Assembly: GCA_051313645.2 (NCBI GenBank) | Contig: JBNRSN020000010.1 | Location: 117,676,001-117,740,000 of the forward strand | DNA length: 64,000 bases | Direction of reading: 5' to 3' | DNA from: Centroscyllium fabricii | Taxonomy: Eukaryota | In this document: piece by piece, positions 8,996 to 62,579 of the stretch | Position numbering within the stretch: position 1 is the first letter of the stretch | Layout of the letters: each line of letters opens with the position of its first letter | Program-made: the position numbers and the translations under genes | Notes under the pieces: model-generated | What the model was told of the DNA's origin: nothing | What the model saw: only the letters and a program-made list of their open reading frames with translations | The model's database searches: none

Positions 8996-10799
8996 CAGGT
9001 TGAGCACTGGTAATCCAGCACCCGATGGTCCGGCACCCGATGGTCCGGCACCTTCAGTGGTTCGGCACGAATCGAAACCGGTGGTCTTCAGTTTGCGGAG
9101 CAGCCGCTCGATGGCGCCACCATTTCTCACGAAGGGTGGGCGAGCACCGAAGGCGTCGGGTGTTTAGGTTTCTGCTTTTTAGTGTTCTATCCCCGGGCTC
9201 CCTCCCGGGGAGTGTTCTACCCGCGCGCTCTGGACCCCGGGGAGTGTTCTACCCGCGTGCTCCAGACCCCGGAGAGTGTTTCTCAGCAATTGCAGCGGAC
9301 CTGTGCAAACGTCAGTGGCTTGTAAATCGTCCCGCGGACAACCACAGGAAACGGCAGCTGCGGGATCTCACCAACAATGCAGCAATTCTCGTTAAAAGTT
9401 TTTCTCGGCTCTTCACAGGTATAATCCTTGCTTCTTTTAGTGTTGGATAAGGACCGGCTCATTATACTCCAGCTAGTAAATACACACTTTGAGGGGGATT
9501 TTGCCGTTAGTGCGGGAACCTGGCGGGGATTGGTTGGGGCGGGTTCCTGTCCCACCCGCCCAAAGACCTGGGAACCCCACGCAATTTTAATTTGATTGAG
9601 TAATTAAATCCCCGCGTGCGGCAGCCGGTGGTAATTGACTCAATTGAGTCGGAGCTGTAGCCGGCTGCGAGGAGCTTGATTGACAGTTCCAGCACTGGTT
9701 GTTAACAGTTCCCATGGAAACACTCCACTGTGACATCACAGTGGAGTGGAACCAATGGGAAGGTCAAGTGCTGGTGACTGACAGGTGGGCGGGCGGGCTC
9801 CAAATCCTTGACAGCTCGGCACCGGCTGTCAGGAAATGTGCAAAGCTGAGATTTCTCAGTTTTTGCCCATCGCTAGTGTATCCACCACGGAGTGACTTAC
9901 AGGTGCTGAAGGCCTGCGAAGCATTTTGCAGCATGTCCTTCAACACCTTGAAGGAGAAAATAATGAACAGCGCTGTGCTCCCGCTGGGTTTCACCAGCGG
10001 GGTTTTAGGCTGGCGGGGTTAGGGTGGGAATGGGGTGAAAATTTGGAAGGGCCCTTAAAATGGCCGCCGGCGGGGATGGGTTGTAACCTCGTTAAGGGCC
10101 CTTAATTAGCATGTTTAATGCCATTTTAAGGGCCCTTCCAAATTTTCATGCCATTCCCACCCTAACCCCGCCAGCCTAAAACCCCGCTGGGTGAAACCCA
10201 GCGGGAGCACCGCGCTGTTCATTACTTTCTCCTTCAAGGTGTTGAAGGACATGCTACAAAATGCTTGGTATGCCTCCAGCACCTTAGAGGAGTAAGTCAC
10301 TCCATGGTGGGTGCACCAGCTGTGGGCAAAAACTGAGAAATCTCAGCTTTGCACATTTCCTCACAGCCGGTGCCGAGCTGTCAAGGATTCGGAGCCCGCC
10401 CGCCCACCTGTCACTCACCAGCACTTGACCTTTCCCATTGGTTCCACTTGACTGTGATGTCACAGTGGAGTGTTTCCACAGGAACTGTCAACAACCAGTG
10501 CTGGAACTGTCAATCAAGCTGCTCGATCCCCACTGGAGCCCCGACTTGATTGAGTCAATTACCAGCGGCTGCCGCAGGCAGGGATTTAATTACTCAATTA
10601 AATGAAAATTGCGTGGGGTTCCCAGGTCTTTGGGCAGGTGGGACAGGAACCTGCCCTGACCAATCCCCGCCAGGTTCCCGCACTTCCGGCAATATCCCCC
10701 CCTTTATGTCTATAATTGTAAAGCTTCAGTGGTTCGGAATTTTCAATGGTCCGGCACCGGCCTGGTCCTGAGGGTGCCAGGTTACCGGTGCTCAACCTG
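8996..10799. mobile_element. Tc1/mariner/pogo-type MITE hosting a nested foldback element
   Basis: TIRs CAGGTTGAGCACTGGTAATCCAGCACCC / GGGTGCCAGGTTACCGGTGCTCAACCTG with TA left and CA right. Subterminal ATGGTCCGGCACC repeats. Confidence 0.8.
9491..10702. mobile_element. 1.2-kb foldback (hairpin) Harbinger derivative
   Basis: Arms ~9491-10064 and ~10120-10702 are near-identical inverted copies with a ~55-bp spacer. G-run/C-run termini and a TTT duplication. Confidence 0.85.
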
Positions 10800-17550: not shown

Positions 17551-18779
17551 GTGGACAACATATTTGTACTTTTCTGTAATCAGGGAAAGGAAAGTTTCAT
17601 GCACATGTACCTGAGAGGCATGTGCCGAGGCCCATGCATCAACTTAGTTAGATTAATGTTTAGAGAGAACTGTCAGGATAGTCAGTTTCTGGTACCACTA
17701 GAAACTTTAAGACACTGAAGGGACTGCATGAGTTCTTTTCTGATAAGCCTCCATATGGACATAAGTGAGCACCATTAGGGGCTCCAGGCCATGGCAATGG
17801 TCGCCTCCAATGAGCAATTTGTCAATTGGTCCCCTTAGGGGACATTACTGAGGCCTGGGGTTGGAGGGAGGCTTGTCAACCTTCCTCAATTAGTGGACAG
17901 CCACTGAATTTTCTTTTTTGCAGCGGGCAAGTGGGTTCCAGAGATGTGCCCACATGTACATGGGCACAAGGTAAATTAGGTGCCCTTCCACTGACTCCAC
18001 TAACTTGGGCGGGCAGCACTGCAGGGAACTGACAGGCATAATCTTGGCATAACTGCCAGGATCACAGCCACGGACTATCAGGGTCAGGACCTGTATGTTT
18101 TTCTACCTGAGATAAAGACCATTTAATATATGTTTTGGTGCTGACTCCCATTCTGCACCACTAAAAACCAGCTGCTTTAAATGACATTTGATGTTGAATG
18201 AAATTATTTAACAGTGAACTTTTAAACTATTACATTCAGCTTTAATATATTAACTTGCTGCGTGATTTAAAAAAATAATAATTGCTTGTGCTAATTGCTC
18301 TTAAAAGAGAATGATAAGCATTCAGGAAAAATAATGCATGGAAGCCTTTTTTTCAGGTTGCAAATGCTGAAAACTTTCATTTATTTTACTGTGTAGCTAA
18401 TTAAACAATATGGATTGTAAATACTTTGAACAAATTGCAATTTACTTCATTGTGTCCTTTGTTTGTACAATCCATATCTGATCAATACATTATTACTACT
18501 TTACTAATAGATACAGAGAACCAATCATATTAATCTACTAAAATCACTCAGATACTCGCAAGCTTTTCCATGACACTGTTTAAAGACTTTTTCATGATTT
18601 CCTTGTAAGTGGTTTGGATTCCACAGCACAATCCAGTAATGCATGCATTACACAGAAGATTTCTAATGACGGCACTGCACATTATACTTGAGAGTTCTAT
18701 CTAGCATATAATATAAAGATCAAAACAAGCTTGGTGTCTGTGACCGCATGCAGCGTTTCAGTTGTTCACTGCACTGTTA

Positions 18780-19908
18780 CTTGGATAGCAAAGATACGTA
18801 TGTCAGAATGCTGTTTATTGACTACAGCTCAGCATTCAACACCATCGTCCCCAGCAAATTGTCTAACAAACTCCTCACCCTCGGCCTGAACACCTCCCTC
18901 TGCAACTGGACCCTGGACTTCCTAACCAACAGACCACAGTCTGTGAAGTTAGGCAACCTCACCTCCCCCCCCCTTACCCTGAACACGGGGGCCCCACAAG
19001 GCTGTGTGCTGAGCCCCCTCCTCTTCTCCCTCTTCACTCACGACTGTGCGGCTGTCCATGGCTCCAACACGATCATCAAGTTTGCGGATGACACCACGGT
19101 GGTTGGCCAGATCACCAACAACGACGAGTCAGCCTACAGGGATGAGATCCAGCGCATTGTGGGATGGTGTGCCGACAACAACCTGGCTCTGAACACCAAG
19201 AAAATTAAGGAGATCATAGTGGACTTCTGGAGGACTGGAAGCAGAAGACACACCCCCATCTTCATCCAAGGGGCTGAGGTGGAAAGGGTGTCCAGCTTCA
19301 AGTTCCTCAGGGTCCACATCTCGGAAGATCTCTCCTGGTCACTAAACACCTCCTCTCTGGTTAAGAAGGCCCAACAGCGCCTGTACTTCCTAAGGAAGCT
19401 GAAGAAAGCCAGGCTGTCATCCGGCATCCTCTCCAACTTCTACCGCTGCACAATCGAAAGCATACTGACAAGCTGCATCACAGTCTGGTATGGAAATTGC
19501 ACCATCTCGGACCGGAAGACCCTGCAGCGGGTAGTCAAAACTGCCCAACGAATCACCGGTACCCAGCTACCGTCAATGGAAAGCATCTACCTCAAACGCT
19601 GCCTACGGAGGTCTCTGAACATTATTAAAGACCCCACACACCCCAGCCACAGTCTGTTCGCCCCCCTGTCCGGGAGATGCTACAGATCAATTCGCACCCG
19701 CACGACTAGATTTAAGAACAGCTTCTTCCCCAGGGCTGTCAGCCTCCTGAACTCTAAAAATAAACTCCGGTACCTGCACACCTGAAAATGTACTTTACTG
19801 TATGCAATTTGCATGTAATTTATTTGCACTATTCTCGGGAGTGTCGAGTCTTCGTCTCGTTGTATTGTACTAGTACTCTGCAATGACAATAAAACTTGAA
19901 TTGAATTG
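18780..19908 (+). mobile_element. 5'-truncated Rex1/Babar-like LINE (RT and C-terminus)
   Basis: Open ORF to 19785 with [56 protein letters not shown] and RFKNSFFP. Short 3' UTR with AATAAA and a (TTGAA)n tail. Confidence 0.85.
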
Positions 19909-21526
19909 TGTAAGTCCAGAGTTGGAGACCAGAATAGTGGCTTACTTGAACCATTAGTTCTATCAAACAAAACTTTGCCTTAACAAAGGCTCAAGTGTGT
20001 GTTAGAACATTAAAGCAAAATAAAATTAATAAATTAGCACTTAAATATAATATCCACAGGACTATATCATCAATTTCAGTGATAAATGAGATCAGAACAA
20101 TCTCACCTTTAAAATGAGATACTCTACCTAGCTACAAAGGTTGAGTTACATTTTAATGATCGAGGAGAAAACATTCTTTGCTCATACATTTGAACTTCTG
20201 AAGAATATATTATTTGGTTTAGTCGCCATATGGCCTAAGGCAAATGGTAAAAGGTTAATAAAGGCTTTAATTGAACCTGTCTCTAAAGTTGTGACACAAC
20301 GGCAGTTTTCTGTCTAACTTTCCTTGGGATTTACATATGGCATTAGCATTGCTACTGTAGAGTGCTTAGACAAACAAGCCATTGTTCGGAATACTTTTTA
20401 CAAAAAACAATTCTACAAGTGTAATTTACAGTGAAGGCTGCATTTGTTTGGAATAACAACAATATACTCAGTTTAGCTAGGAAACGTTAGGTGAGGACAA
20501 AATACTATGAACTGCAGAAGGAAAAGGTTGGAACACATTTATGCCCACGGTGATTTAGGGTTGACTTGGACACAAAGTAGTAAGATTGCATTATGTATTT
20601 CTATCACTTATAAATGTTGCAGTGTGAAGACTTATTTAGTAGCATGCCAATATATATGTCCAATTCCTACTAGTGTTTGGACACAGGTCAATGATTCCTG
20701 TAACAATCATGCTGGTATCTTATGATTCATTTTTCTGTTCCTTTCTTTTAGCTTCCTATGCCAGCATTATCTTCATTCAAAAGAGCAAGCAGGGAAAATA
20801 AAAGCCACTCTAAAACCATTCACTAAGAGGTGAGACCAACCTGCCTGTTACCATTTTGTGCCACAGACACATCCAGGGGTGTCATCTACAGCTCAGGAAT
20901 TACAAGGCAAGTGAGGCTAAATGGGGCCGATTTTCCTCTTTCCTCCTCCTCAGCCAGAGCAGAAGTCAGGCGCACTACAGTCAATATGTGCTCCACTCAG
21001 TAGGTGAAATATCTGAAACTGACTATATTTGTGGGCTCAGGACATTATAATCTGCTCCCCCCCCCCCCCTCCCAATGCCACCCTATCTCAGGAATACCCC
21101 TTCAAAGGGGGTTCCTACCAAAAGTGGGAGAGGAGACATCTTCAGCAACAATAATGGCCATTTCTTTTGGGGCCTTCTGGCTGCTATTCAGAAACAGCAG
21201 CCAGAATGCCTTCAACCCCAAACGCATCCTGCTTGCCCTGAAAAAATCACATTTTGGAGCCTCCAGGGGCTTGCTGTCTGCCCATTCACTGGCCCTCTGA
21301 TATGAGGGGGCTGGGTGCAAGCACTAAGAACCATTTCCTATGGATGTCACTGCATTTGTGTCTCTGCCAAGTGGAAATACAGGAAAATGAGACACGTTGG
21401 TGTCACGCCCATCTTATTACCATCCAATTTACACCTGTTCACGATAAAGGCACTTTGCTGAATCATATGGCCAAATCAGTAGAGTACAAGTGGAAGGAAG
21501 TGCACAAACAGTATAATTCTCAATTA

Positions 21527-22310
21527 CAGTCAAACCTGCACAGTAAGGCCACTCACAGGAAATGCAAAAAGTGGCCTTTATAGACAGGTGGCTTTTCTAT
21601 ACAGGTTTATGGTGGCCATTTTGTTTTTATGTACAGTACATGTATATGTATATGTATATGCACATGTAGTGACAGTGTATTCTTTGTGTTAGAATCATTT
21701 TTAATTGAATTGTAAAGTTTAGTCGAAGGCGACCCCAGGCGACAGCCAAGAAATTTTTGAATTCTTCGCCGATGTCGGACATTTTGTTTCGCTGCACGGC
21801 AGGCTCCGACACTCGGCAGCACTTTAAATGCCCATATCTCCGCACTCAGGCATTGGAGCGATGCACTTTTGTCACCGTTAGACTTGGCTTTGTCTGTTTA
21901 GTCGAAGGTGATCCCGGGCGACAGCCAAGAAATTTTTGAATTTTTCCCGATGTCGGCCACTTTGTTTCACGGTATGGCAGGCTCCAACACCCGGCGGCAC
22001 TTTGAATGCCCATATCTCCACACTCAGGCATCGGGGCGATGCGCTTTTGACACTATTAGACTCAGCTTCTCCTGTTTAGTCGAAACAGACCCCGGGCAAC
22101 AGCCAAGAACTTTTTGAATTTTTCGCCGATCTTGGACATTTTGTTTTGCGGCCGCTGGCTGCGACAAAACAAGTGACCACTGGTCGTGTTGAACAGGTGG
22201 TCGTTGTGTACAGGGCTTATAATACCGTATTTCTCTGCGGGGGAAACTGATGTGGCCACTATGAACAGGTGGCCGTTCTGTAGAGGTGGCCACTAACACA
22301 GGTTTGACTG
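21527..22310. mobile_element. Tigger/pogo-like MITE with an internal ~179-bp tandem array
   Basis: TA|CAGTCAAACCTG ... CAGGTTTGACTG|TA with subterminal CAGGTGG repeats. Internal units start at 21717, 21896 and 22074. Confidence 0.88.
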
Positions 22311-23199
22311 TACTTCAAATTATACCATAACAGTAGGACACAGGTTTAAACTAGTGGGACTGGCATCTGGAAATACTTCTTCACATAAATAGTCAGGAAT
22401 ACAAAGACTGGACTTCTGGGTAGATAGTGGAAGCAAAGATCCTGCAATTATTTAAGAAACAGTGGAATGCCATTATGGGGGGATGGATCCTCATCCGTTT
22501 CTAGCTTGAAATTTTGCCAGTAAATCATTGTTCAAAATATTCTAACAAACTGACTAAAAAGTACCAGATTCCAAACTTGACTCATTTTCAACTTGTACAG
22601 TACTATTCAGAACTTAAAAAATTCCAAATCCTCTCTGTCAGCAACAAAAATTAAATAGTCTACAACAACTAAAATTATAGTCACAGATATCCCATATTAT
22701 ACACAGTGAGCCTGTTGGTTCTTTAGAAAATTATTTAAGTAACAGAATATTCAGATCTTTGTATTTTACTTTTATCCTCAGTCATCATTTTAAGCATCAT
22801 TGTGCAAAAATGCTGTGCATAAATGTGCAAACTAACCATTGCCTAATGTAAAATAGATTTGGATGGTCTGAGCTGAAAAATTTAGAAACACAGTTCCTAA
22901 TGCTAACAAGTCTAACTTCCCAACCAGATGCTTATGAATGCACTCCACTGTTGCCTATCACTTGAAGCTGCCTGCTTCAGTTGGGGCACATTTATTCAGT
23001 TTTCTACTAGGCCACTTGTAGCAGTCTTATGCAAAATGCTCCACCTCAGGAAAAGAACAACTCTTGCAGGTATTGTCTACCTCAACTTAAAGCATGTCTT
23101 TGTAGATTACATAATGTGGAGGTGCCAGTGTTGGACTGGGGTGGATAAATGCAAGAAGTCACACAACACCAGATTATAGTCCAACGGTTTTATTTTAAA

Positions 23200-23237
23200 T
23201 CACAAGCTTTCGGAGCTTCTGCCCCTTCGTCAGGTGA
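23200..23237 (-). ncRNA. Minimal type-I hammerhead ribozyme motif (mirror copy)
   Basis: Exact reverse complement of 23251-23288. Confidence 0.75.
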
Positions 23238-23250
23238 AAGAGAGTCTCTT

Positions 23251-23288
23251 TCACCTGACGAAGGGGCAGAAGCTCCGAAAGCTTGTGA
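23251..23288 (+). ncRNA. Minimal type-I hammerhead ribozyme motif
   Basis: TCAC-CTGACGA-A-GGGGC-AGAA-GCTCC-GAAA-GCT-T-GTGA: stem I UCAC/GUGA, core CUGAnGA...GAAA, palindromic stem III AGCU, predicted cut after CUU (23284). Confidence 0.75.
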
Positions 23289-24264
23289 TTTAAAATAAAA
23301 CCGTTGGACTATAATCTGGTGTTGTGTGACTTCTTGCATTTGTAGATTACAGAGCGATATTGGTGGTGATCAGGAAGAAGCCCATGGCCTAGGCTGTCCC
23401 ACCTACCTCCTCTCTGAGGGAAACTGCATGAGGGTGAACTGAATACTAGTGGAAATAACACATTTCGCAATAAAAATGAAATGGGTTGCTTAGAGTGATC
23501 AGTAAAATGTTGCTTTAATTATTTGAAGAAAACTAAATGTGCAAGATATAGCCTATAATCACAGTTGTGTTAGAAACATTGTATTGCACATAATTATCAA
23601 TGTTACTGTTTTCATGCAGTCTTGATCAAAGCATTAATTTATATTCCAATCATTGATTTATTCCCATATGGCATTTCCTGCAGTTAAAAGTAGACAGAAA
23701 ATTACATTACAGCTTATAGTTGCAATTTGTCAAAACTGATTTTCACTATTATCTGCTAGAGTTTTTGCTGACCTATGTAAAACTTTGCATCCCAATTATA
23801 TCCCTTCAAAATCACACTATCTACATTAGATCAATAGAAAACAACCTGCTTATTGAGTGGACAATTTCACTAAACCACTGCAGGTATTGGCATATGTTGA
23901 TGTTACTGGCTCCCCGTGCAGAGCAATAAATCAGTGGACAAGAATAAACAATGCACAAGTGACAGAAGAAAGAGAGAACTTAATTCCCTCGCCAGCTACA
24001 TGGAGATCTGGAAGTTGAACTCTTGATTGTAAACTGTTTCCCAGCTTAATCATCCTACCACATCTTATCTGTGTTTGTCATCAACCATCTTTATTACACT
24101 GCACAAGCCTTTATAACCCACCACTGATTCTGTTATCAGTAATCAATTCTGAGTAAAATATGCGTGAAAATGGTGCTATTTTGTAATATCCAAGACTAAC
24201 AAAATTATCAAAATGCAAAATCCTTAATCTAATTAGAAGCATTACTTACAGTGAACTTTAAATC

Positions 24265-27447: not shown

Positions 27448-27466
27448 GGGATTATTGAACTCATAC

Positions 27467-27715
27467 CTTGATGGACCCGGGGATGACGAGCTTCATGGCT
27501 TGTCTTTTGAGCTCTGCCAGCTTGAGCTGGCAATTCTTACACCAGGTTCCTTTCTCTTCCTTCTCGAAGGAGCAAGACTCGGTCCCGGAGCCGGCTCCTG
27601 CTCCCTCGGGAGCGGGCCGTCTGCCACAGTGATCTTCCTCGGCCGCCTGGCATCTCTTCCTGACACCGGACTCCAGGGGCATCGTCGTCTCCTTGCCTGG
27701 GCTCCCATCCAGCAC
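27467..27715 (-). CDS. KIF26A: KIF26A coding exon 2 (83 codons, phase 0/0): VLDGSPGKETTMPLESGVRKRCQAAEEDHCGRRPAPEGAGAG...WCKNCQLKLAELKRQAMKLVIPGSIK
   Basis: The translation matches the recalled KIF26A N-terminus (human ...RKR...DPCGSRPAPEGAGAG...[20 protein letters not shown]; KIF26B has [17 protein letters not shown]). Acceptor tttgcag|GTG at 27716/27715, donor AAG|gtatga at 27467/27466; length 249 nt. RPAPEGAGAG favours KIF26A over KIF26B. Confidence 0.88.
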
Positions 27716-28225
27716 CTGCAAACATATCAGAAAAGGGAACGAGAAATGCAGTGAGTTGTGCTGGCAGGGACGCGAACTCGGGCTGTCAAGTGGAAAGGGG
27801 GCAACCGTTAAATGTAACTATGCGAAACTGCCCCCTCTCCGACAAACTGAGAAGTATTATTAACACACACAAGAGTCACTCCTGAAACATCGCTTCAAAC
27901 TGTCTTTCAACTAGTTCAGTTTGTTTCGTGTCAGCGAGCCTGTTGCTGTGGGGAGTTACTGTAAACTCCCGCATAATACTCGGTGTGGCTACTTGTTAAC
28001 AAGCCGAGTAAGGGCTGTGATTCTTGGAGTTAGGGAGCATTGGTACATGTGTCATGTAGTCGCGATGCGCCTGTTGGTTTTAAAGGTACTCTAATACTGG
28101 GACCATCTGAAACACTGCAAATCAGCTCCCCGTACGGTATAGCTCAGACCTAACACAGCCAGCCTGAAACTTTACTCAGCATTGACCCAAGTACAGTCAC
28201 TCTCTCCCACAGCCTCGTTACTTAC

Positions 28226-28276: not shown

Positions 28277-31068
28277 TTTGGATAAAGTCACTTTCGATTA
28301 TTGCAGGAACACATCAAGTCGGGGCCAAAGCCAAAAATAATTACTGTGACCAGTCCCGTCTCTCCGCTGGAAAGTGTGGATTCATATCAACAGACTAAAT
28401 GCCAGTGAATGAATCGTCTGGTCATTACTAGGAATGCAATTGTCATTAAACTACTTTTTTTTTTTCAAATGCCCCTGAAAAGTCTAAACCGGTATTTGTT
28501 CAGAATGCGCTTCCACATGCGTGGACCATCCATGTCCTAAAGGAAACAAGAGTAAGTTTGAGTTTCAAGTTTGTGTGGGTTCGGGGAAGCGGCAGCGTGT
28601 CTTCCAGTGGGTGGAGCACAAACTGGATTGAAACCACTGATCGGTCAAGGAGTTCCCGTGACTGACAACAGTAAAGTGCTCAAATAGCACAACCCTGCAA
28701 CAACTTCAAACTCCCAGCGTCGACTTTCAAACCGGCGCTCTCGTCAATTTCACATGTAGCCATTTCAAATGACAGAACATCTGGGCATTGTTTGTGCGAC
28801 CCATTCACAGAGTCCGCAAGCCAAGCCCGCATGACTTTAGTAAATTAATTTTAGAATCTGTGAAGTTGTCAACAATCTCTTGGTTTATTTCGCTGTGCGA
28901 TTTATTACTGCAATTGCCATTCAAAACGGAGCATTGCAGAAATCATCACAATAAGACAGGCGTGCTCTTGCAGTGCCCGCGGTACCTGCTTCAGTTCATT
29001 TAGCTGTGTCAATGAACAAGCTACTCGAAACTGAACTGTAAACGGCTTGAGATTCAAATTCACTCTAAGGTTCAATTTACAGCTTTATTTTGTCTGCAGA
29101 ATGGTTCAGAGCTTTCATTCAAGCTAGCTGTATGCGGCGTGTGATACGTTGTATTTATTATGTTTGGGTTAATTTAACACTAAGGTTTGACCAAGTGATG
29201 CTGTTGGATGATGTTTTGCACCCTTCCCCCCCCCCCCTCCCCACCAAATAACGAGAATCATTTTTCAAAACGCAAAAAATATACTAGTACTCTTCAACCT
29301 GAATAACTTATTCTTAACCTCAAAGCCAACTCAAGCTGCTAAACACTCTACCGCTCACAGTGTTTTGTGTTAACCCGTGCTCTATTAGTCTGGGAAGTTG
29401 TTCCAGCTTTCAGCCTCCCTCCCAGAGTCATTCTGTGCCGAGAGCGATCGTTGCTGTAGTTGCAGCGCCACTTGTTGGCCGTAGTTCAGAATCCGCACAA
29501 AGGACCAAATCCTCAGAAAAGGAAAAACTTGCTCCACGGGAAGAACTATGAGCCGGGTATTCGTGTGTGCATAGGAAAATCCTGCTCACACTTTGCTCAG
29601 CGTAGGTACAGTTGGGCCCTCAATGCTTATCTGAGTCGGTCTCCTCTCAGTGAGTGCGAGTTCTCCAACTCGGGAATAATGGGCTATGCATGGGCTGGAA
29701 GAAGGCAGTACAAATTACAGTATACATCAGTACACATTAACTGGGAGTAAAAGAAATCGCTTTAAAACAAAATGGCACCACAATTACTATTTCCATGTTG
29801 TTGGGCCATGGTCAATTTTTTTTACAGCATACAGGAAACGGACACATTTAAAACTAGGCAGAAACGCAATGGAACATTTTGATCAAAAAAGTTCAGACTG
29901 GGGGGACATTTTAAAGTGCTGTGTTTACTCGTTTATTGCAAAAGTTATCTGGAATACTTTATTATAAGATTACATTAATCACAAATGTCAAATCTATTAC
30001 AGCCATTGAGATGGAGCTGGAGAAACTTGGATAAATACCAGATGTCGTTAAAATACTTTAGTGTCAATATAAAAGTCTCCCCCCCCCCCCCCCCCCCCAC
30101 CACCCCCCAAAGCATAGTAGGTGCATATTTAGTACGAGCTTTGAGTTTGAAATTGTTTCAACGTTGGCCACTTTGTCCTCCACTTGATACCCAACTGAAG
30201 TAATAGAGTAGCTTCGGTGTGCTGCCCAGAGGATTGAACTGGGCAGGCTTTGCATACTTGGTGGTTGAAGACCCTCACAAGACCCTCATAGGTGTGAAAA
30301 CGCTACGTGGACGGTCGAAGGTGAGCTGGTGGGGGGCTGATTGCAAGAAGCAGCGGCAATGGATAGACTACTGTGGAAGCTGGAAGAGGGCGTAGTGCGA
30401 TTGTGAGATGTCTGGTCAAAATAGATGGGTGGTGCGTTTCAAATGACACGCCTTTCTAAAAAAAAAAGCTGAATTTTAGTTATATCAAGTCTCACAGGTT
30501 CTATAAACCAAAACGACCCCCCCCCCCCCCCCCCCGTACAGCGTCTGCTAAATAGCAATGGATTAGCATGCAGGGGAGTACCGAAAACAAACGTGGCTCT
30601 GTGCTTGTGCTTAAGTTGCAGGAAGGTGCCTCATCCTCTGCAGACTTTACCGGTTAAGAAATTACAAGAACTCTATTCATAGATTTAAGTATAAAAAGGA
30701 CCTTTGGCTCGAAACGTAAGAACAAAAGAACTTTATGAATCAAAAAAGGCCAGTAAACCTAGAAAGCCAGTTCCAACCCGACTACAAGCACAGAGCCCCG
30801 TGTGATTTCACGAATCAGCCAAAATCCACGGATTCCTCCCCTCCCCAGAATTGCCTCTTGAGCTCACTTCACAGTCAGCTCATGACTCCCACGGATTTGT
30901 TCTTAAAAGCAAAATAATGTTTAAAAAGGGAACAAATCTTTGCCTCTGCAAGTATTTCTGATCCTGTGTGCCTAACACTGAGCTGAGGCACCGTGCGCCC
31001 CGGTGTGATTCTCAGTGTTGGGGAGCTGCTGATCCGCTCAGGAGCCGATTGTTCGGCGGCCGGGGCCA

Positions 31069-31215
31069 CCCTCCCTCTCCCCGGTGCTGCCCTCCCTCTC
31101 CCCGGTGCTGCCCTCCCTCTCCCCGGTGCTGCCCTCCCTCTCCCCGGTGCTGCCCTCCCTCTCCCCGGTGCTGCCCTCTCTCTCCCCGGTGCTGCCCTCT
31201 CTCTCCCCGGTGCTG
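31069..31215. repeat. Minisatellite, 7 x 21 bp (CCCTCCCTCTCCCCGGTGCTG)
   Basis: Direct reading: five identical units followed by two units carrying a C>T variant. Confidence 0.95.
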
Positions 31216-31524
31216 CCGCGCCCAGGCTCCCGCGGAAAGCGCGCTCCCCAAGCATGGGCGCGGACAACCCACGCGGGAGTGCGCACATCCTAGCTCTGAG
31301 CGCACCCCCAGCCCGGGGGCGGGGTCGGGTCTGTCTCCGACTGGCGGCGCTGTGCCGGGAGCCGGGCGCCGCCCTCCCGCAGGGCTCGGGGCTCCGGGGG
31401 AGGATTCACGGGCGGCACCGCCGCGCCCGGCCATTCATCAACGTGTGACTCCCCCCGCCCCCCACCGTCCGCCTGAAACCTGCCGCCTCCCAGCCTCGGT
31501 ATCCTCAGGCCAAAGCCAATCTTC

Positions 31525-31960
31525 CGCGCGCCCCCAGCACCGCTCCATCACGCGCGCTCCCGGCATAAGCGACCGCGCACGCTCTATACAGTAATGCGCG
31601 CCCATCGCAATGCGCGCTCCCGGCAGCAATATACGCGCGTCAACATCGCTCAACCACGCGCGCTCTCGGCAACAATGCGCGTCCCAGAGTATCGCTCCAC
31701 CAAACGCGCTCCCGGTAGCAATGCGCGCTCCTGGTATCAATGAGCGCGCCCCAGCACCGCTCCGAGATGCGCGCGCCAGGTCGTAATGAGCGAGCCCCAG
31801 CACCGCTCCACCGTGCGCGCTCCGTGTAACAAGGAGCGCGCACCCGGTAACAATTAGCGCGCCCCAGCACTGCTTCGCCGTGCGCGTCCACGAGAACCGC
31901 GCCACCATACGCGCGTCCGGCAGCAATGCGCACGTTCCCGAGCATCGCTCCGCTCGGCGC
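31525..31960. repeat. Degenerate GC-rich repeat of two interspersed ~20-bp units (GCGCGCCCCAGCACCGCTCC / GCGCGCTCCCGGYAGCAAT)
   Basis: Roughly 20 recurrences of GCGCGC-like cores at about 20-bp spacing. Confidence 0.7.
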
Positions 31961-32440
31961 ATTCCCGCCCCCTGCACTCTGCGCGCACCCGCCTCCTGGT
32001 CACCGTTGTTCCGGGCGCGCCTCCGAGCCCCCGCTTTGCCATGCGCGCCGCCGATCTCCCCCTCTGTGCGCGCTCCCGGGCCATTTCTCTGGGCTGCTCT
32101 TTTGCCAGTCCTGGTGTCTCCGGCTCTCCTGCTGTCAGTGACAGGAACTCTGCACCGACCCAGGCGGCCGGGCCGCCCTTGCACCGAAGCAGCAGGTGCT
32201 GGTTGCTCTTACACTTTAAAACACTTACATTGCTGAGAATCTCACACTTCAAGTATGGTTTTTATCCTTCTCACGTTCCAGGATGCTTTGTAATACATTC
32301 ATGACTTGTGAAAATATCAGCTCTGGTAATATTTTGAAATGAACACTGACCTGAAGTTTCTATTGTTTTATTTCGGCCGGTTTCTATGCAACTTGAAGGC
32401 TTCTGCTACTGCTTATCTGCACTGAACGTGAAGCCCAATA

Positions 32441-32527
32441 CTTAAAATAAAACTGTTGGACTATAATCTGGTGTTGTGTGACTTCTTGCAATTGTCCACC
32501 CCAGTCCAACACCGGCACCTCCACATC
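32441..32527 (+). mobile_element. Solo tail of the 23112 Penelope-type family, without the ribozyme core
   Basis: TTAAAATAAAACTGTTGGACTATAATCTGGTGTTGTGTGACTTCTTGCA...CACCTCCACAT is near-identical to the reverse complement of 23114-23200. Confidence 0.75.
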
Positions 32528-39344: not shown

Positions 39345-39712
39345 TTTAGGATGTAAATGTCACTGGCAAGGCCAGTATTTATTGTCCATTCTGAGTTGCC
39401 CTAAGAAGGTAGCAGTGGGCCTTCATCTTAGAATCATAGATCTTGAACCACTATTCTTTGTAACAGTTTTTTGAAACAATGCCCTTTAGAGCCAGCCGCG
39501 TTGGTGCGGGACTGGAGTTACTATAAGCCAGTTTCCTTCCCGACAGGGTTTTTAATGGCAATCCAACACCTTCGTGCTCACTTTTACTGATACCAGCTTT
39601 ATATTTCCATATTTTTAAACCGAATTCAAATGCTCAAACTGCCATGCGTGGGATTTGAACCCACTTTCTACTAGATTAGTAATCTAGCAAGCTAACCACT
39701 ACACTACCGTGT
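39345..39712 (-). mobile_element. Old tRNA-derived SINE
   Basis: Reverse-strand head GGTAGTGTAGTGGTTAGC...GGGTTCAAATCCCAC and an A-rich end. Confidence 0.5.
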
Positions 39713-41182
39713 CCTGTTTATCATTACATCTTTTTAGTGAATTGGAAATAGTAGTAATTCAAAAATCACACCTAACTTTAAGCACAGGTGATACACATCA
39801 TAGATAAGCCAATCCCTAGGCATAAGACAAAGCAACTGAACAGACCTATAAAGAAAAGGCAAATGGACAAAAAGTATCAAAAGTCAAGAACCACAGGGAA
39901 TGAAAGTTGAATATAAAAAGCAGTTGAAAGTGGACAAATTTAGGATAAAAGAAGACCCCAAGGTGTAAAGGGGAATGTGAATTGTTATTTGTTTGATCTG
40001 TTCATAACAGACAAAAGGTTTGAGAACACCGGTGGGCCTCTAAGGGATGAAATTGCCAGAGTAGTTATAGAAAATCAGGAATGGTAGAATTTTCATTTTT
40101 AGTGGAATCTTCACAAAAACAGACAGTAGGATTATCATGGATCCATTAACAAGATGTTTGGAGTATCAGGGGAATGTGTCGAGAAGCCAATTAATAATGG
40201 AGAAATACTTATTTAAAAAAGCTGGAGGCAAAGAGGGTAGATAAGGCAGCAAGAGCTTGTAACATGCACATAGAGATTCCTAAGGATGTATAGGAGGATT
40301 GGAGGATTGGGGAAGTTTGGCAAATATAGTCAGTATTAGTAATTATATAAAATTGGAGAAAAACCAGAGGACTTAAAATGTTAAATATTGTATCAATGTA
40401 TCTTTAAAAACACATTTTATTTTGTTTTGTCTTCTTTATGTCCCCTTATGCCATGCACCAATCCTCACCCAAATGATTGCTCCCAGGGTCTTTATAAATG
40501 CCATTCTCTCACTAGCCATGAGTCCCGAATTACTCACTTTTAATTCTCCCTCCTTACCTTTGGGGGAAGCATCCCAAGACCACCTCTTGCCAACCTTTAA
40601 CAGCACAGTTAAAATCAGTAACTTTTTTCCCACTCCATTTTTCTTTCTTTTAATTTTATAAGAAGGAGTAATAATCATGCGATTTACGCTAAACTATTCA
40701 CCAGGTTAAAAATAGTCTCATGCATTGCTACAAAACACGTTTTGAATTGGCAGATATTAAACATAAACTAAGCCAAAGTAGCTATTTTATTTAATTACAG
40801 CAAAATGAAAATAGACACAAAAAATTCAGCAAATACAAGAAGTGTAATATATAACCAAATGTAAACACGCAACAAGAAAAGTCAATAATGAGTCCATTAC
40901 CCTTGAAAAATTCTTCAACTCGAAAATTAAAAAAACATTTTAGTTTCAGAAAATACTGATTACTGGATTCAGTTGGTTCCTTTTCTCATACAACTTTCAA
41001 TAACAGCATGCCATCATACAGTGGCCCTCAAGTAGAGAACAACTGAATTAATCACCAGAATTTCAAAACAACTGTTGAACCATGTACTGATAGAGGTTTA
41101 CAGCATTTGGCCCATTGTGTCTGTACCAACTCTTCACCAGAGCAATCCAATACTAATCCTGCTGCCCTACTTTATTCTCATA

Positions 41183-46302: not shown

Positions 46303-48877
46303 GGAATAGGAAGGGGGCGGTAACGTTAGTGGGAGTCTTTTATAGACCACCAAATAGTAACAGGGAGGTGGAGGAGGAAATTGCGCGACAAATAAAGGAA
46401 AGATGTGGGGGACAGAGGGTAGTTATAATGGGAGATTTCAATTTCCCTAATATAGACTGGAATCTAGGTAGGTCAAAGAGTGCAGAGGGAGAGATTTTCT
46501 TACAATGCGTACAGGAAGGTTTCCTGACACAATACGTGGAGGAACCAACAAGGGCGGGGGGCAACGTTGGACCTGGTTCTGGGAAATGAACCAGGCCAAG
46601 TGGTAGAACTGGGGGTAAGGGAGCACTTTGGGGACAGTGACCACAACTCGGTGACGTTCACAATAGTAATGGAGAAGGATAGGAGCATGAGGCAGGGTAA
46701 GGTATACAGCTGGGGGAGGGGAAATTACGACAGGGTTAGGCACGATTTAGCTAACACCAATTGGGAACGGGAACTTGCTGGGAGAGGAACGGAAGAAAAA
46801 TGGAGAGTGTTCAGGGAGCAAATTATGAAAGCCCTGGATAAGCATGTCCCGAGTAGGATGGGAAGCAAGGGTAAGAGGAGAGAACCATGGATCACGAAAG
46901 AGGTAGAACAATTAGTAAAAAAGAAGAAGGAAGCATATGATAGAATGAGAAAACAGAGTACAGAAGGGGCGGGAAGGGAGTACAAAGAAGCAAGGAAAAA
47001 TCTGAAGAATGGGCTAAGGAAGGCAAAGGGAGGGCATGAGAAGGCATTAGCGGGAAGGATAAAGGAGAACCCTAAGGCTTTCTATGCTTACGTGAGAAAT
47101 AAAAGGATGACTAGGGTAAAAGTAGGGCCGATCAAAGACAGCAAGGGAGAAATGTGCACGGAGCCAGAGGAAATTGGGGAAGCACTAAATGAATATTTTG
47201 CGTCCGTGTTCACAAGGGAGAGGGAACTAAAAGTAGAGGGGGAGTTCAAGATACAAGGGGAAAGGATGGGGGAAGTAAATATTCAGAGGGGGGAGGTATT
47301 AGATATTTTGGAGAAACTGAAGGTAGACAAATCTCCTGGGCCGGACGGGATATATCCAAGGATTCTCTGGGAGGCGAGGAACGAAATCGCAGAGCCACTG
47401 ACCTCTATCTTTAGATCATCGCTATCCTCGGGGATAGTCCCTAAGGACTGGAGAGAGGCGAATGTGGCTCCCATATTTAAAAAGGGGAGCAGGGACGTGC
47501 CAGGGAACTACAGACCAGTCAGCCTCACCTCAGTGGTCGGAAAGGTGATGGAAAGGGTCCTGAGGGACAGGATCTACGACCATCTGGAAAGGGGCGAATT
47601 AATCAGAAGCAGTCAGCACAGATTCGGTAAGGGCAAATCGTGCCTGACCAACCTGATTGAATTCTTTGAAGAGGTGACCAAGAGTGTGGACGAGGGAAAG
47701 GCGGTTGATGTCATATATATGGACTTCAGCAAGGCGTTCGACAAGGTCCCGCACGGTCGGCTCATGAGGAAAGTAAGGAGTTGCGGGGTAAGCAACAAAG
47801 TGGTGGGATGGATTGAGAACTGGCTGGCTCAGAGGAAGCAGAGGGTAGTGGTAGAAGGCCAATACTCGGGCTGGAGACTGGTCACCAGTGGGGTACCACA
47901 GGGGTCGGTGTTGGGGCCACTACTGTTTGTAATCTTCATCAATGACTTGGAGGAGGGGACTGAGGGGTGGGTCAGCAAATTTGCGGATGACACAAAGATT
48001 GGGGGAGAAGTGGATGAGGAGGAAGGAAGTAGAAAGATTCAGAGGGATATAGATAGGATGCAGAGCTGGGCTGAAGAATGGCAAATGGAGTTCAACACGG
48101 GGAAATGCGAGGTGATGCACTTCGGTAGGGCAAATAGGAAGAGGGAATATAGGGTCAACGGCAGGGTCCTGAGTGAAGCAGAGGAGCAAAGGGATCTGGG
48201 AGTATATGTACACAGATCACTGAAGGCTGCCACCCAGGTGGACAAGGCAGTAAAAAAGGCCTATGGTGTATTGGCCTTCATCAACAGGGGAATAGAGTTT
48301 AAGAACCGGGAGGTCATGCTGCAGCTGTACAGGTCGTGAGACCACACGTGGAGTACTGTGTGCAGTTCTGGGCACCATACTACAGGAGGGATGTGGAGGC
48401 GCTGGAGAGAGTGCAGAGGAGATTCACCAGGATGCTGCCGGGAATGGGGGGAAAGTCATACGAGGAACGGTTAAGGGAACTGGGACTCTTCTCCCTGGAA
48501 CGGAGAAGGAAGAGGGGGGACTTGATAGAGATGTTTAAAATGATGAAGGGGATCGATAGAGTAAACGTGCAAAGACTGTTTCCCCGGGTGGGAAGAACGA
48601 CAACAAGAGGACACGAGCACAAGATTCAAGGAGGAAGATTCAGAAGGGATGGCAGGGGCAAGTTCTTTACACAGAGAGTGGTCGGGGAATGGAATAGGCT
48701 ACCATCTGAAATAGTGGATGCGGACAGTCTGGGTGCTTTTAAAAGGATGATAGACAGGTACATGGAGGGGAAGGAACAGTAGGGGGGACAGGAAAAATCA
48801 GAGACGGACTAAGGGCGGCACTACATTGAGGGCCCAAGGGCCTGTACAGTGCTGTATGTTCTATGTTCTATGTTCTA
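46303..48877 (+). mobile_element. 5'-truncated CR1 (HER1-like) LINE: APE endonuclease C-terminal half plus RT
   Basis: GVFYRPP, MGDFNFPNIDW, SDHN, NYRPVSLTS, YMDFSKAFDKVPH, GVPQGSVLGP, KFADDTK. Two frameshifts (~46555, ~48336). 3' GGGCC..GGGCC motif and (TTCTATG)n tail. Confidence 0.95.
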
Positions 48878-50788: not shown

Positions 50789-51769
50789 GGAAAAAGTTAG
50801 AGGTGTAACAGGTTTTAAGCAGGTGCAGAGGCAGGGAAAGGGGTGAGGGAGGAAAGAAAAAAAGGGACAATCTGTGCTAGAATGGAAGGCAGGAGAGATT
50901 AAATGTTGCAAATGGGGTTGGCAGAATAATCAACAGATGCCATGTGAAAAAATAAGGGCAGGGGTTATAGTCTGAAATTGTTGAACTCAATGTTGAGTCC
51001 AGAAGGCTGTAAAGTGCCTAAGCGAAAGATGACGTGCTGTTCCTTGAGCTTACGCTGAACTTCATTGGAACAGTGTAAGAGGCTGAGGACAGAGAGATCA
51101 GAGTGGGAGTGGAGTGGAGAATTAAAATGACAAGCGACCGGAAGTTCGGGGTCACCCTTACGGACTGAACGGAGGTGTTCTGCAAAGCGGTCGCCCAATC
51201 TGTGTTTGGTCTCCCCAATGTAGAGGAGACCACATCGTGAGCAGTGAATACAGTATATTAAATTGCAAGAAGTACAAGTAAATCGGTGCTTCACATGGAA
51301 AGGGTGTTTGGGGCCCTGGACAGTGGGAAGGGAGGAGGTAAAAGGGCAGGTGTTGCATCTCCTGCGCTTGCACGAGAAGGTGCCGTGAGGAGGGGAGGGG
51401 CTGTTGGGGGTAATTGAGGACTGGACTAGGGTGTTGTGGAGGGAGCGGTCCCTTTGGAATGCTGAAAGGGGAGGGGAGGGAAAGATGCGTTTGGTGGTGG
51501 GGTCACGCTGGAGGTGGCAGAAATGGCGGAGAATGGTGGGGTGAAAGGTGAGGACAAGGGGAACCCTATCGTGGTTGTGGGCAAGAGAAGGGCTGAGAGC
51601 AGAAGTGCAGGAAATGGAATGGACACGGTCGAGGGCCATGCCAACCACAGTAGAGTGGAATCCTTGGTTGAGGATAAAGGAAGACATATCAGAAGCACTA
51701 GTATGGAAGGTGGCATCATCAGAGTAGATGCAGTAGAGACGGAGAAACTGGGAGAATGGAATAGAGTCG

Positions 51770-52283
51770 TTACAGCCCTTATCTGAGGAAGGATATTCTT
51801 GCCATGGAAGGAGTTCAGTGAAGGTTCACAAGGCTGATACCTGGGATGGCAGGAATGACGTATGAAGAGAGATTGGGTCCATTGGGCTTATACTCACTGG
51901 AGTTTAGAAGAATGACAGGGGATCTCATTGAAACTTATAAAATTCTGACAGGTCTGGAAAAACTAGATGCAGGAAGAATGTTCCCGATGGTTGGAGAGTC
52001 CAGAACCAGGGGGCACAGTCTAAGGATAAGGGGTAAGCCATTCAGGACAGAGATGAGGAAGACTTTCTTCACCCAGAGAGTGGTGAACCTGTGGAATTCT
52101 CTACCACAGAATGTAGTTGAGGCCAAGTCATTAAATATATTCAAGAAGGAGTTAAATATAGTTCTTAGAGCTAAAATTATCAAGGGATATGGGGAGAAGG
52201 CAGGTACGGGGTACTGAGTTTGGATGATCAGCCATGATCTCATCGAATGGCGGAGCAGGCTCGAGGGGCCGAATGGCCTACTC
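51770..52283 (+). mobile_element. CR1 3' fragment (tail B) inserted in the Penelope element
   Basis: YEERLGPLGLYSLEFRRMTGDLIETYKIL...FFTQRVVNLWNSLP. Confidence 0.88.
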
Positions 52284-56135: not shown

Positions 56136-56908
56136 TATAAAGCTGAAATTTGAATCAGTGATGTCCTGAAGCAAAGTTGATCACTTTCATAATGTACTTG
56201 CTAATAAAACAAATATGACACCTATTCTTTCAACTGTCGATGCTGCCATTAGCTTCAATTATTGGTCTACAAACCTTTGGAGTTTTACAACTTTTGTAAG
56301 CTATTTCCACTCTTTCAGGTTCCGCAGCTAAAATGGTAGATAAGTAACCAGCTCCCCGTCCTTTGTCACTGGTAGTTGGCTGCCAATAAGTACATGGGGT
56401 GGGGTGTCTCAGTCTCTGACCTTTTCTCCATCCCTATGATGATCTGACCTTAATTCTATGGCTCCCTCTGACAACCCAGCGAGATCAAGAAAAGAAAGAA
56501 CTTCCATTTATATAGTACCTTTCATAACATCAGGGCATCCCAAAGCATTTCACAATCAATGAAGTACCTCTGAAGTGTAGTCACTGTTGTGAGGCAGGGA
56601 AACGCAGCAGCTAATTTGCACATAAACAGCAATGAGATAAATGTCTAGATAATGGCCTCGATCTTCCCTGAGGTGTGGGGAATTGGCGGGTTTCCGGCGC
56701 GGCAGATTGCCCACATGAATCCTAAAGGGCCTGGGAGCCCCACGCAATTTTGGCTCAATTGGTCAATTGATTTCCAGCATGTGGGAACCCTTGGTAGGTG
56801 AGTATTTCCAGTCAGAAAGTCGCACAATATGATGTCACCACTGCTGGTGCTTTTAAGGCAGACAGCAAGCCTTCCTCACTCTGCAGGTTTCCAGGCGCTT
56901 TCTTCAAG

Positions 56909-59340
56909 ATAGAACAGGAGCCTGCAGCAGCTGTGGCCAGCAGGAGGGCCCGACCCTCACCCAAGTTTGACAACGCTTCACTACAGGCATTGCTAGAGGG
57001 GGCTAGGGCCCACAGGGAGGTTCTCTTCCCTTCCTCAGGGAAGAAGAGACCTCCCAGTCAAACCAAGGCTACTTGGCTGGAGGTGGCTGAGGAGGTGATC
57101 TCCGTGGCCCTCACAACATGTACATGGATGCAGTGCAGGAAGAGATTCCATGACCTTCATCGAAGTGGAAAAGTAAGTATAGAGTTTCCATCACCCTCAA
57201 TCTGATCCCCATTGCCTTTCCTCACCAACACTTAGCTTCACCAATCTCTTCCTCCACATTCCACTTGACATTCACATCCATGCACCCTTACCCATTCCCT
57301 CTCTCTCTAAGCTCACATTCACATAACTATTCCACTTTGCAGCCCTCACACTCCCTCTCAATCTGATGCTTTGACCACAACTGACAACACACAGGGAGGG
57401 CCCTTGGTCTTGCAACCTCACTCCATCTTTGTCTCCCTCTAAGTTTCTATGCTGTGCAATCTCTGAACTCACTCCTTCATTCTCATTCAACCTCCACTTG
57501 TCTCCCTCATTGCAGGAAAAGAGAGCTCACAATAAAAGGGAAAGAGCCAGGCCAGGAGGAGGCCCACCCTCAATAGCATTCCTCACCACCTGGGAGGAAG
57601 GAGTGCTGGAAATAGTCGGGGATGATGCGGCTGCGGAAGTTGGGGAAGGAGAGACGGGCATCCTCATAAGCTGGTGACAGAATCGTTTTCTATCTCTCTC
57701 ATTGACATCGTATGGCTCGCAGATAATGATTCTGAAGCTACATCATATGGACTTATGATCATCTGCAAAATACAATGTGCATGTGACCTTACCATCACAT
57801 CTCTAACTCTTTCCGTTACTCCCACACAGGACCATCGAGAGCCTCCGTCCCCACTGTGGAGGAGGAAGAGGCTGAGCAGCCAGACTCCTCAGAGGAAGCT
57901 GCAACCACTGAGGGCGCAGCGTCAGCAGAATTCAGCGCACCCAGCACCAGTGCAGACACTCACACCTCGGGGGGACCTTCGGGACATAGAGTAGTGTTGT
58001 CACCTGGTGTATCACAGCTCACAAGTGAGCCTCAGTAGATTGTGGAGACAGGGACAGCAGTGCAGAGTCCTAATCGGAGGGCGCAGGACTCTCCCAGCTC
58101 GGCTCAGCTGCATGTTGACCCTCTGCCTCTGGGTCAATCCGAAAGATCAGGGGTGATAGAACTCCATGCACAGATGCAGGAGTCTCTGGTAGGTTTGGTC
58201 TCCAGGGTCGCTGCGAGTGCGGAGCGAATGGAGGAGTCCATTGAGAGCATGAGCAGAGCCTTTGTGGAGTCAGTGGCGCATGAACACATCACCACGGAAA
58301 GGATGGCTTCCTCCGTGGAAATGATTGCTGCCTCCGTGGTAAGGCTGGCTACGGTAGAGGAGAGGATGGCTGTGGCAGAGGAGAGGAGGGCTGCAACCAT
58401 GAAGGAGGTTAGTTGCCAGGGTATGGAAAACATGGTCATTATTCATAGAAACATAGAAGATAGGAGCAGGAGTAGGCCATTCGGCCCTTCGAGCCTGCTC
58501 CGCCATTCAATGAGATCATGGCTGATCATCCAAACCCAGTACCCCGCCCCTACCTTGTCCCCATATCCCTCGATCCCTATCGAGCCTGCACCGACACATA
58601 TCCCACCCTATCCCCGTAACCCCACATATTCAATCCCCCTAACACTAAGGGTCAATTTATCATGGCCAATCAACCTAACCTGCACATCTTTGGACTGTGG
58701 GAGGAAACCGGAGCACCCGGAGGAAACCCACGCAGACACGGGGAGAATGTGCAAACTCCACACAGATAGTACCCGAGGCTGGATTTGAACCCGGGTCTCT
58801 AGTGCTGTAAGGCAACAGTGCTAACCACTATGCCACCGTGTTGTTCAGAATAGTATGACATCTCTTGAGGAGCAATGGGCATCTATTGAGCAGAGAAACC
58901 AGACCTTCATGGAAGTCCTTCTGAGTAGGACTGCCATTGCAGATATGGGTCCCCATGGCCCCCCTGATGTGCAGCAAGGTGCTCTCCAGCCATTTGCAGG
59001 CACTGAGGGGGAGCTGATCCATGAGAGGGAGGTTGGTGGCACACCTCAAGGAAGTGGGGCCTCCTCTCCACACGCTCACACTTCTATGCCACTGCAGAGC
59101 CCTCGGTCAGAGCCCCGCCAGAGTCCACACCCAAGTGAGATAGGCATCTCAACCTCTGCACAGCCACAGGAGCAGCAGACTGCTGGCGAGCCCTCACAGG
59201 CTCGCCACCCCAGAGGACGCCCACCAAAGGTGTTGAGACAGGAGCAGCAGGAAAGTGAGCAAGGGGCCTCCACATCTGCTGAAGCCACAGTGGAACCATG
59301 ACGTAGGAGCACGTGTAAGAGGAAGATAAAGCACTATTAA
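56909..59340 (+). pseudogene. Harbinger Myb/SANT-like DNA-binding gene, three exons (~56909-57172, 57516-~57673, 57830-~59340), disabled
   Basis: PKFDNASLQALLEG...WLEVAEEV...TWMQCRKRFHDL, then gtaagt at 57173. Acceptor tgcag|GAAAAG gives EKRAHNKRER..GGGPP; acceptor acacag|G at 57830. Premature TAG at 58036, SINE insertion 58446-58840, TGA at 59299 before a basic RRSTCKRK tail. The start appears mutated to ATA, and the exon 2/3 phases disagree by 1 nt. Confidence 0.8.
58446..58840 (-). mobile_element. HE1-like V-SINE, tail-B type, inside the Harbinger Myb gene
   Basis: TTATTCA/TTGTTCA flanks. Confidence 0.88.
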
Positions 59341-61302: not shown

Positions 61303-62579
61303 GCTTCTGGTGGCTGCCTCCACTGAGGAAGCACTGAGTGAGGATGGAGAGAGGGCTTTCCTAGGAGGTCACAGTGGAGAAGTGTGTGAGGCTCCAACCT
61401 TCCGCAGGAGTGGTGAAGCCTGGAACAAGTTGCCCCAGGCCTGAGACAACAATGTCCTGCCGGCTGCAAATGATGGCTTTTTAAATCTATTCCTTAATGA
61501 TTGACCTATTGCTAAGAGTCAGCAAGCCAATTGTGTCCCCGCCAGGTTTCAGTGGTGGGGTTTCCAGCTGGCGGGTTTTGTGTGGGAAAAGTCTGAAAAT
61601 TGCAAGGGCCCCTTAAAATGGCATTATAGATGCCAATTAAGGATGATTAAGTTGCCTAAAGACCATTCCCGTCGGTCGCAGGCGGGACTGAATCGGGTCG
61701 ACCAGACACAGCAGGGGAAAATCGCAATGCGTCGGCAAGCCGGGGGGGAGGGGTGGCGACCCCCCGGTTCTGCAATTTTGCAGCCCGAGCCGCCAAAAAG
61801 CCTGCCTGACGGCTCACGGAAAATTGACCCCAAACTGTTTCAGTGGTGTTGATTAAGGGATAAATGTTGGTCAGTAAACCAGGAGAACTCCACTGCTCTT
61901 CTTCAAATAGTGCCATGGGGTCGTTTACAGGCATCTGAGCAGGCAGCCTGGACCATGTAATTCATTATTGTGGCATATCTCTTCCTCGCCACAAATTGCT
62001 GGGCTTTTTACGCCTTAATAATGGTGAGTGCTGTGAACTCGCCATTATTTTTCCACCAGTTTTTGGCCCATGGTGTAAATGCTTCTTGTCAATAAAGATG
62101 TGCAATCTTCAGTCTCATTCACATCTGGAACTTTTCAATACGTTCAAAATTTATGGTTAGCTTACTTATAATTCACAAAAATAAAAGTCAATCATTATTT
62201 TATTTCTAAATGATGAATCATTTATAATGTAGCGACTCAGAGTGGTCTGAATTCATAGATCAAACACAGCAGTGGAACTGACAAAAATCTCAAAGCTGGA
62301 AAAGGGCTTAACATAATTATAGATTAAAGTTTATTTAAAAAGTGACACTTCTGTTCACTGAGACCCTCCTGCTCTGGATGTTTAATGTGCCGTCACTTCA
62401 GATCTTAGATCAGCGCTGTGTGTCTGATTGGCCGCTACCTCGCTGCAGAAAATTCTAATTAGACTAAACAGAAACATTTGGAGCAAGTTAGCCATGGCAA
62501 GAAGGCGAGATTCATAGTGAGCATCGCCAACCTTGCCATTGTAAGAAATTCTGGGCCATTATATAAATGTAATTTTATA

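Follow-up and report, generated by a model that had tools for sequence, protein, structure and literature searches.

An inserted palindrome in a long KIF26-family intron

The window, by which we mean the whole 64,000-nt stretch of Centroscyllium fabricii DNA analysed here, carries a palindromic insertion of 240 nt within a kinesin gene of the KIF26 family. Two 97-nt arms (23147-23243, minus strand, and 23245-23341, plus strand) are 100% complementary around a single unpaired G at position 23244. On the sense strand of the element this base is a C, which lies 11 nt upstream of position C3 of a hammerhead motif and forms the middle of a self-complementary word of the parent element, AGA-C-TCT (seen in copies L001, L003 and L004). 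A 13-bp target site duplication (TSD), TTTGTAGATTACA, flanks the insertion at 23099-23111 and 23339-23351; the right arm and the right TSD copy overlap by 3 nt. The left arm is separated from the left TSD by 35 nt (23112-23146, minus strand) that have no mirror partner and represent the "tail" of a Penelope element, present on one arm only. The tail-bearing or long arm is thus the left one, a pLTR end that is sense on the minus strand, and the right arm is the tail-less or short inverted arm. In full-length copies the tail runs up to the ATG of an 890-aa open reading frame (ORF), and here the first two bases (TG) of the left TSD, read on the minus strand, extend this start codon of the parent.

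The insertion is lineage-restricted, as three related organisms lack it at the orthologous position. In three of the four sequencing runs from these organisms, contigs join position 23098 directly to 23339 and skip exactly 240 nt; 13 letters fit both sides of the joint, as in a pre-insertion allele with one TSD copy. The fourth run aligns on both flanks and has no listed joint. An assembly artefact is ruled out by these empty-site contigs. Four runs from the same organism (two samples, one study) provide contigs of unique flanking sequence that enter the insert from both sides, by 25 nt on one side (22 nt in a single run) and by 17 nt on the other; these entries fall under our 31-letter bridging rule, and the palindrome centre is spanned by no contig. 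An earlier note, made from the letters alone, had described the locus as a perfect palindrome inserted in one event with a 13-bp TSD. Self-comparison of the sequence and the empty site, where the TSD is single, bear out the palindrome, the TSD and the single event, and add the one-sided 35-nt tail that the note had overlooked.

The host gene, a kinesin gene of the KIF26 family, has an exon within an open frame at 27461-27814 (minus strand), which matches model positions 1-27 of Pfam HTH_KIF26A_B_1st. A motif scan of the window for the next KIF26 exon found none; the next matching exon (PF23081 positions 30-84) lies about 130 kb downstream of this frame, and the insertion is therefore intronic. 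The position within a KIF26A intron claimed in the earlier note thus holds at the level of the gene family, with PF23081 exons on either side. A very long intron interrupts PF23081 at the same point in the two KIF26 paralogues, measuring approximately 130 kb in one and 185 kb in the other (C2:117573674 and C1044:25439809-25624866). The interval 30875-32300, upstream of the KIF26 exon on the minus strand, is rich in G+C and in 21-nt repeats and is possibly a promoter or first-exon region.

Parent Penelope family and hammerhead motifs

The left arm and tail match many genomic loci at 95-99%; the exact tail motif has 75,289 matches in the genome and the hammerhead-edge anchors have 33,987. A second, shorter copy of the same family, consisting of part of the arm and the tail, is located in the window at 32442-32526 (plus strand), and neither a hammerhead nor an inverted arm was found in it. 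Of ten long copies retrieved, nine contain an uninterrupted 890-aa ORF that begins with an ATG straight after the tail (L201-L209 carry intact ORFs of this kind), and the arm from the window matches both sides of the ORF in L201, L203, L204, L205, L207 and L208, which gives the order pLTR-ORF-pLTR. Searched against Pfam, the whole ORF matches RVT_1 only (E 6e-10), with no match to GIY-YIG, and three ORF fragments gave no match; the endonuclease is thus called from motifs, without Pfam support. These motifs comprise ADKG, YIDD, a C-x4-C-x2-C linker and VVYLIRC...YIG, in the order reverse transcriptase (RT), linker and two cysteines between VVY and YIG. Neptune/Nematis-type Penelope-like elements (PLEs) are reported to have a C-terminal GIY-YIG domain, a CX2-5CxxC linker and a CCHH motif (PMC8557442). 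The parent ORF is likened to them by its motifs, including the linker between RT and endonuclease (CHSNLCKTC at aa 752), which is also a Nematis feature.

Endonuclease-containing (EN+) Penelope-like elements are described with an adjacent inverted 5'-truncated copy, a one-sided tail of 30-40 bp and a TSD (PMC8557442, PMC3846280). All three are present here. The parent family has a single ORF that contains an RT and, by motif, a C-terminal GIY-YIG endonuclease, and the pLTR has a hammerhead motif that was recognised by inspection. Judged from these features, the insertion comes from a Neptune-like (Neptune/Nematis-type) EN+ Penelope-like element, of which it represents the pLTR end with the hammerhead. 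The Penelope origin surmised in the earlier note is thereby upheld, by the tail matches as well as by the ORFs. As nine of ten long copies have an uninterrupted ORF, the family may have been active recently. The inserted copy itself is likely dead; taken by itself the locus is of little weight, being a single case among tens of thousands of dead ends of Penelope elements. A 286-aa frame at 50965-51825 (minus strand), which ends in a YIG-type nuclease motif, is a fragment of a second, different Penelope-like family.

Each arm carries on its own strand the sequence UCAC / CUGACGA / A / GGGGC-AGAA-GCUCC / GAAA / GC / UU / GUGA, that is stem I (UCAC/GUGA), the core CUGACGA, an extra A, stem II (GGGGC/GCUCC), GAAA and a palindromic AGCU, with CUU as the cleavage triplet. 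The motif in the long arm extends over 23200-23237 (minus strand; C3 at 23233, predicted cut 23204/23203) and that in the short arm over 23251-23288 (plus strand; C3 at 23255, predicted cut after 23284). Descriptor features were taken from PMC4209133. An Rfam scan of the window at gathering thresholds gave no hammerhead match, so that the motif rests on sequence inspection, which agrees with the earlier note in finding a minimal type-I hammerhead in both arms. Minimal hammerheads are known from metazoan PLEs, including pairs on opposite strands 100-700 bp apart (PMC4209133). Ours resemble those reported there in the short stem I, the extra nucleotide (A9/G10.1), the G10.1-C11.1 pair and the palindromic stem III; they differ in that the cores are only about 20 nt apart, stem II has 5 bp and the triplet is CUU.

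The whole insert is predicted to fold at -185.9 kcal/mol (z = -29), and none of 200 shuffled sequences was equally stable. Hammerhead pair probabilities are predicted as 0.32 in a lone arm and 0.00 in the full insert; the predicted minimum of the monomer is a rival hairpin over the core, with a hammerhead-like state of about 32%. These predictions support the earlier proposal that the hairpin would block the ribozyme fold. A self-locking function, as the name given to the structure in the note implied, is not supported: the locking is a by-product of where the join falls, and in the explanation preferred below the blocked ribozymes would be a side effect. A perfect hairpin is predicted from either strand, and with the intronic position this would fit an insert co-opted as a dsRNA regulator of the KIF26-family gene, serving as a substrate of ADAR or Dicer. 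We regard this as extremely improbable, since related organisms do without the insert at the orthologous site, the genome contains thousands of like hairpins, and dsRNA may form passively without any function.

Positions of palindrome centres and junctions

The exact 41-nt centre of the palindrome occurs at 114 loci in the genome. In a sample of 30 of these, this locus included, 25 have a TSD of at least 9 nt and all of these TSDs are different, as expected for independent insertions; L051 and L052 are duplicates of one insertion, and L043 is a same-centre palindrome without a tail on either arm. Taken alone, these copies would speak for a non-autonomous hairpin element with a "double hammerhead", transcribed as a whole and retrotransposed as such, in which the hairpin would mask cleavage; a family of this kind is what the earlier note had envisaged in case the centre recurred. 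However, the note had also stated that variable centres would contradict such a family, and the centres vary. A spacer of 0-30 nt between the same anchors is found at 1,533 loci, so that the 114 loci make up 7.4% of such joins and 0.15% of tail copies; among the first 50 of the 1,533 joins listed, three have this centre. Inside the ribozyme there are 1,900 short-spacer joins, and among the first 50 listed, counted by eye, 20 centre on GGAGCTCC and nine on AAGCTT. The GGAGCTCC centre, which deletes both catalytic cores, is present at 546 exact loci and is about five times commoner than the centre studied here. Further upstream there are 373 joins, with repeats at CATATG and ACATGT among the matches listed, and spacers reach up to about 1.4 kb. 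The recurrent centres thus mark short self-complementary words of the parent element.

The same-centre copies do not share one orientation or one lineage either. On the strand of the long arm, 21 of the 30 loci have a C at the centre and nine a G. The outer end of the long arm falls at C3+120 to +132 in 27 of the 30 loci, that of the short arm at +77 to +91 in 29. Variants mirrored on both arms were counted in 27 loci (the 30 less one duplicate, one locus with an indel and one with a short arm): 12 were found against 2.4 expected (maximum of nine in 5,000 permutations), next to 31 one-arm-only variants. Several of the mirrored variants are subfamily markers that are present in non-palindromic copies too, and the same centre therefore arose on several backgrounds. 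Since the centres vary, sit on self-complementary words and belong to different subfamilies, their recurrence is best read as convergence and not as descent of a unit family, for which a recurrent identical centre is no proof. A few of the 114 loci may conceivably be re-duplications of a unit. The mirror join itself was likely rebuilt afresh at each insertion.

An unselected sample consisted of the first 90 of 100 tail matches listed, all within the first 24 Mb of one contig. An inverted arm was found within 1.5-2.5 kb in 55 of them and was not seen over that distance in the other 35. Of the 55 inverted-arm copies, 47 are flanked by a TSD of 8 nt or more, which measures 12-13 nt in 35 copies. 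Wherever the centre lies, the outer end of the inverted arm falls at C3+76 to +100 (53 of 55). This holds even with the centre 0.7 kb upstream, a pattern not expected of a unit copied with 5' truncation. A double-hammerhead element that moves as a unit is thus very improbable. Junction midpoints range from -684 to +54 in the 55 copies, and 28 of them lie between -30 and +10, compared with six and five in the flanking 50-nt windows (p = 4e-8). In the whole genome, short-spacer joins involve about 9% of the anchors immediately upstream of stem I, 3.3% of those inside the ribozyme and 3.0% of those further upstream; these percentages are rough, because anchors differ in length and subfamily coverage. 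The joins cluster at the 5' edge of the hammerhead and not at its cut site. Because they are enriched just upstream of the hammerhead, double-hammerhead palindromes are common, which a unit element would account for as well. Hammerhead cleavage was considered as the cause of truncation and rejected: by eye, none of the first 50 joins listed inside the ribozyme is cut-to-cut, and of the 84 arm ends a single one comes within 2 nt of the predicted cut site (+30). L115 and L160 have two or more inverted segments each.

Two-ended priming as a proposed model of integration

The combination of head-to-head arms, a tail on one side and a TSD is the layout already published for Penelope, and head-to-head palindromic junctions are reported in PMC3846280. 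With the inverted-pLTR EN+ insertions of that report (Pen2a_Av and others; scheme in PMC8557442) our insertion has in common the palindromic head-to-head pLTR, the 30-40 bp tail at one end, the short TSD and the strong 5' truncation. It differs from the Pen2a_Av type in that both arms have only about 100-130 nt and no ORF, that the ORF of the family starts just after the tail and not inside the pLTR, and that the copy number is very high; its TSDs of 12-13 bp compare with 8-10 bp in the rotifer examples (PMC3846280). In the publications considered here the origin of inverted structures in Penelope-like elements is left unresolved, and in the open-access literature on Penelope hammerheads and inverted pLTRs we found nothing on the present family or on junction positions.

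We consider it probable that the insertion is a 240-base head-to-head Penelope end with a one-sided tail and a 13-bp TSD, the mirror half of which stems from two joined cDNAs. This explanation builds on the family identity, layout, TSD, variable centres and convergence at self-complementary words established above and adds the two-cDNA step, which we infer from genomic end products. The element protein would nick both target strands 13 bp apart, and each nick would prime reverse transcription, starting at one or the other of two sites within the RNA; the distance of approximately 35 nt between these sites would explain why only one arm has a tail. Both cDNAs would stop near the 5' edge of the hammerhead, and their ends, each reading AGAGTCT, could anneal by microhomology around one G-G mismatch. 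Repair of this mismatch to C or G would predict both centre bases observed.

The two arms of single copies bear on this step. Arm 5' ends were mapped on natural long copies for those 42 of the 55 copies whose midpoints lie at -124 or higher. In 17 of these the tail-less arm extends beyond the tail arm at its 5' end by 8 nt or more, the reverse applies to six, and 19 are symmetric (17 vs 6, p = 0.035). In 17 of the 42 copies each arm holds sequence missing from the other, so that neither arm is a DNA copy of the other unless a deletion followed. These asymmetric joins favour two separately primed cDNAs; they could also result from post-insertion deletions at unstable palindrome centres. The mirror arm of the same Penelope stub might alternatively have been made by fold-back self-priming of one nucleic-acid strand, and self-priming on an antisense template has already been proposed for Penelope inversions (PMC3846280). 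The preference of joins for self-complementary words, the variants mirrored within copies and the 19 symmetric joins are in line with fold-back. It cannot, however, yield extra sequence of each arm's own, nor does it explain C as well as G centres (21:9), without later deletion or repair, and AGA-C-TCT would require a loop of 1 nt. We therefore judge fold-back self-priming unlikely.

For the stop of the two cDNAs at the hammerhead edge, the 5' end of the RNA is one candidate and stalling at an RNA structure or a bound protein the other. A TCAGT/TCAGA word, which we take to be initiator-like, is situated about 14-18 nt upstream of C3. Internal promoters have been reported for Penelope (PMC2377424). 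Tentatively, and with clearly less confidence than in two joined cDNAs as such, the stubs may be regarded as a genome-wide record of symmetric integration, in which a dimeric protein would start one cDNA on each of the two target strands, at RNA sites separated by 35 nt; both cDNAs would run off the 5' end of a transcript starting just before the hammerhead, like strong-stop DNAs, and their ends would anneal. If true, such symmetric run-off would account at once for the tail, the head-to-head order of the arms and the hotspot of junctions, with no need of an antisense template. The value of the material is statistical, as thousands of junctions favour two-ended priming and place the stop at the 5' edge of the ribozyme.

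Biochemical work on a related system concerns Poseidon of Anolis (PAc), the purified protein of which nicks and extends both strands in vitro (PMC11167929). Two internal RT start sites bound the tail, and uncleaved RNA is the main template (PMC11167929); the joins described here, which avoid the cut site, resemble PAc in this respect. PAc belongs to the Poseidon clade and thus to a clade different from the present family. As its start sites were alike on both strands in vitro, the PAc work does not show one site per strand, and the sections of PMC11167929 considered here say neither how the inverted arm arises nor where junctions fall. The intact 890-aa copies in the genome studied here could serve for in vitro tests of two-ended priming. 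Non-LTR retrozymes (bioRxiv 10.64898/2026.07.22.740005) are likewise short, non-coding, hammerhead-bearing and derived from PLE pLTRs. They consist of head-to-tail tandem units, whereas ours is a single head-to-head insertion of a dispersed kind, rebuilt at each insertion.

The window contains further repeats. A 1.2-kb stretch at 9493-10700, 88% self-inverted and with related pieces at 425-1242 and 61513-61824, resembles a non-autonomous DNA transposon with long inverted ends. A 363-aa frame at 60174-61265 (minus strand) is presumably like Harbinger transposase, and a short frame at 56798-57205 (plus strand) like the Myb-like partner of Harbinger. Two LINE-type reverse transcriptase fragments of different families are located at 46528-48782 and 18712-19785 (both plus strand), and about 2.5 copies of a 178-bp unit (21717-22152) lie within a repeat bounded by short inverted sequences (21522-21538 / 22299-22315). 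The sole Rfam match noted in the window is a weak tRNA match (35.7 bits) at 39640-39713 (minus strand), probably a SINE head or a pseudogene.
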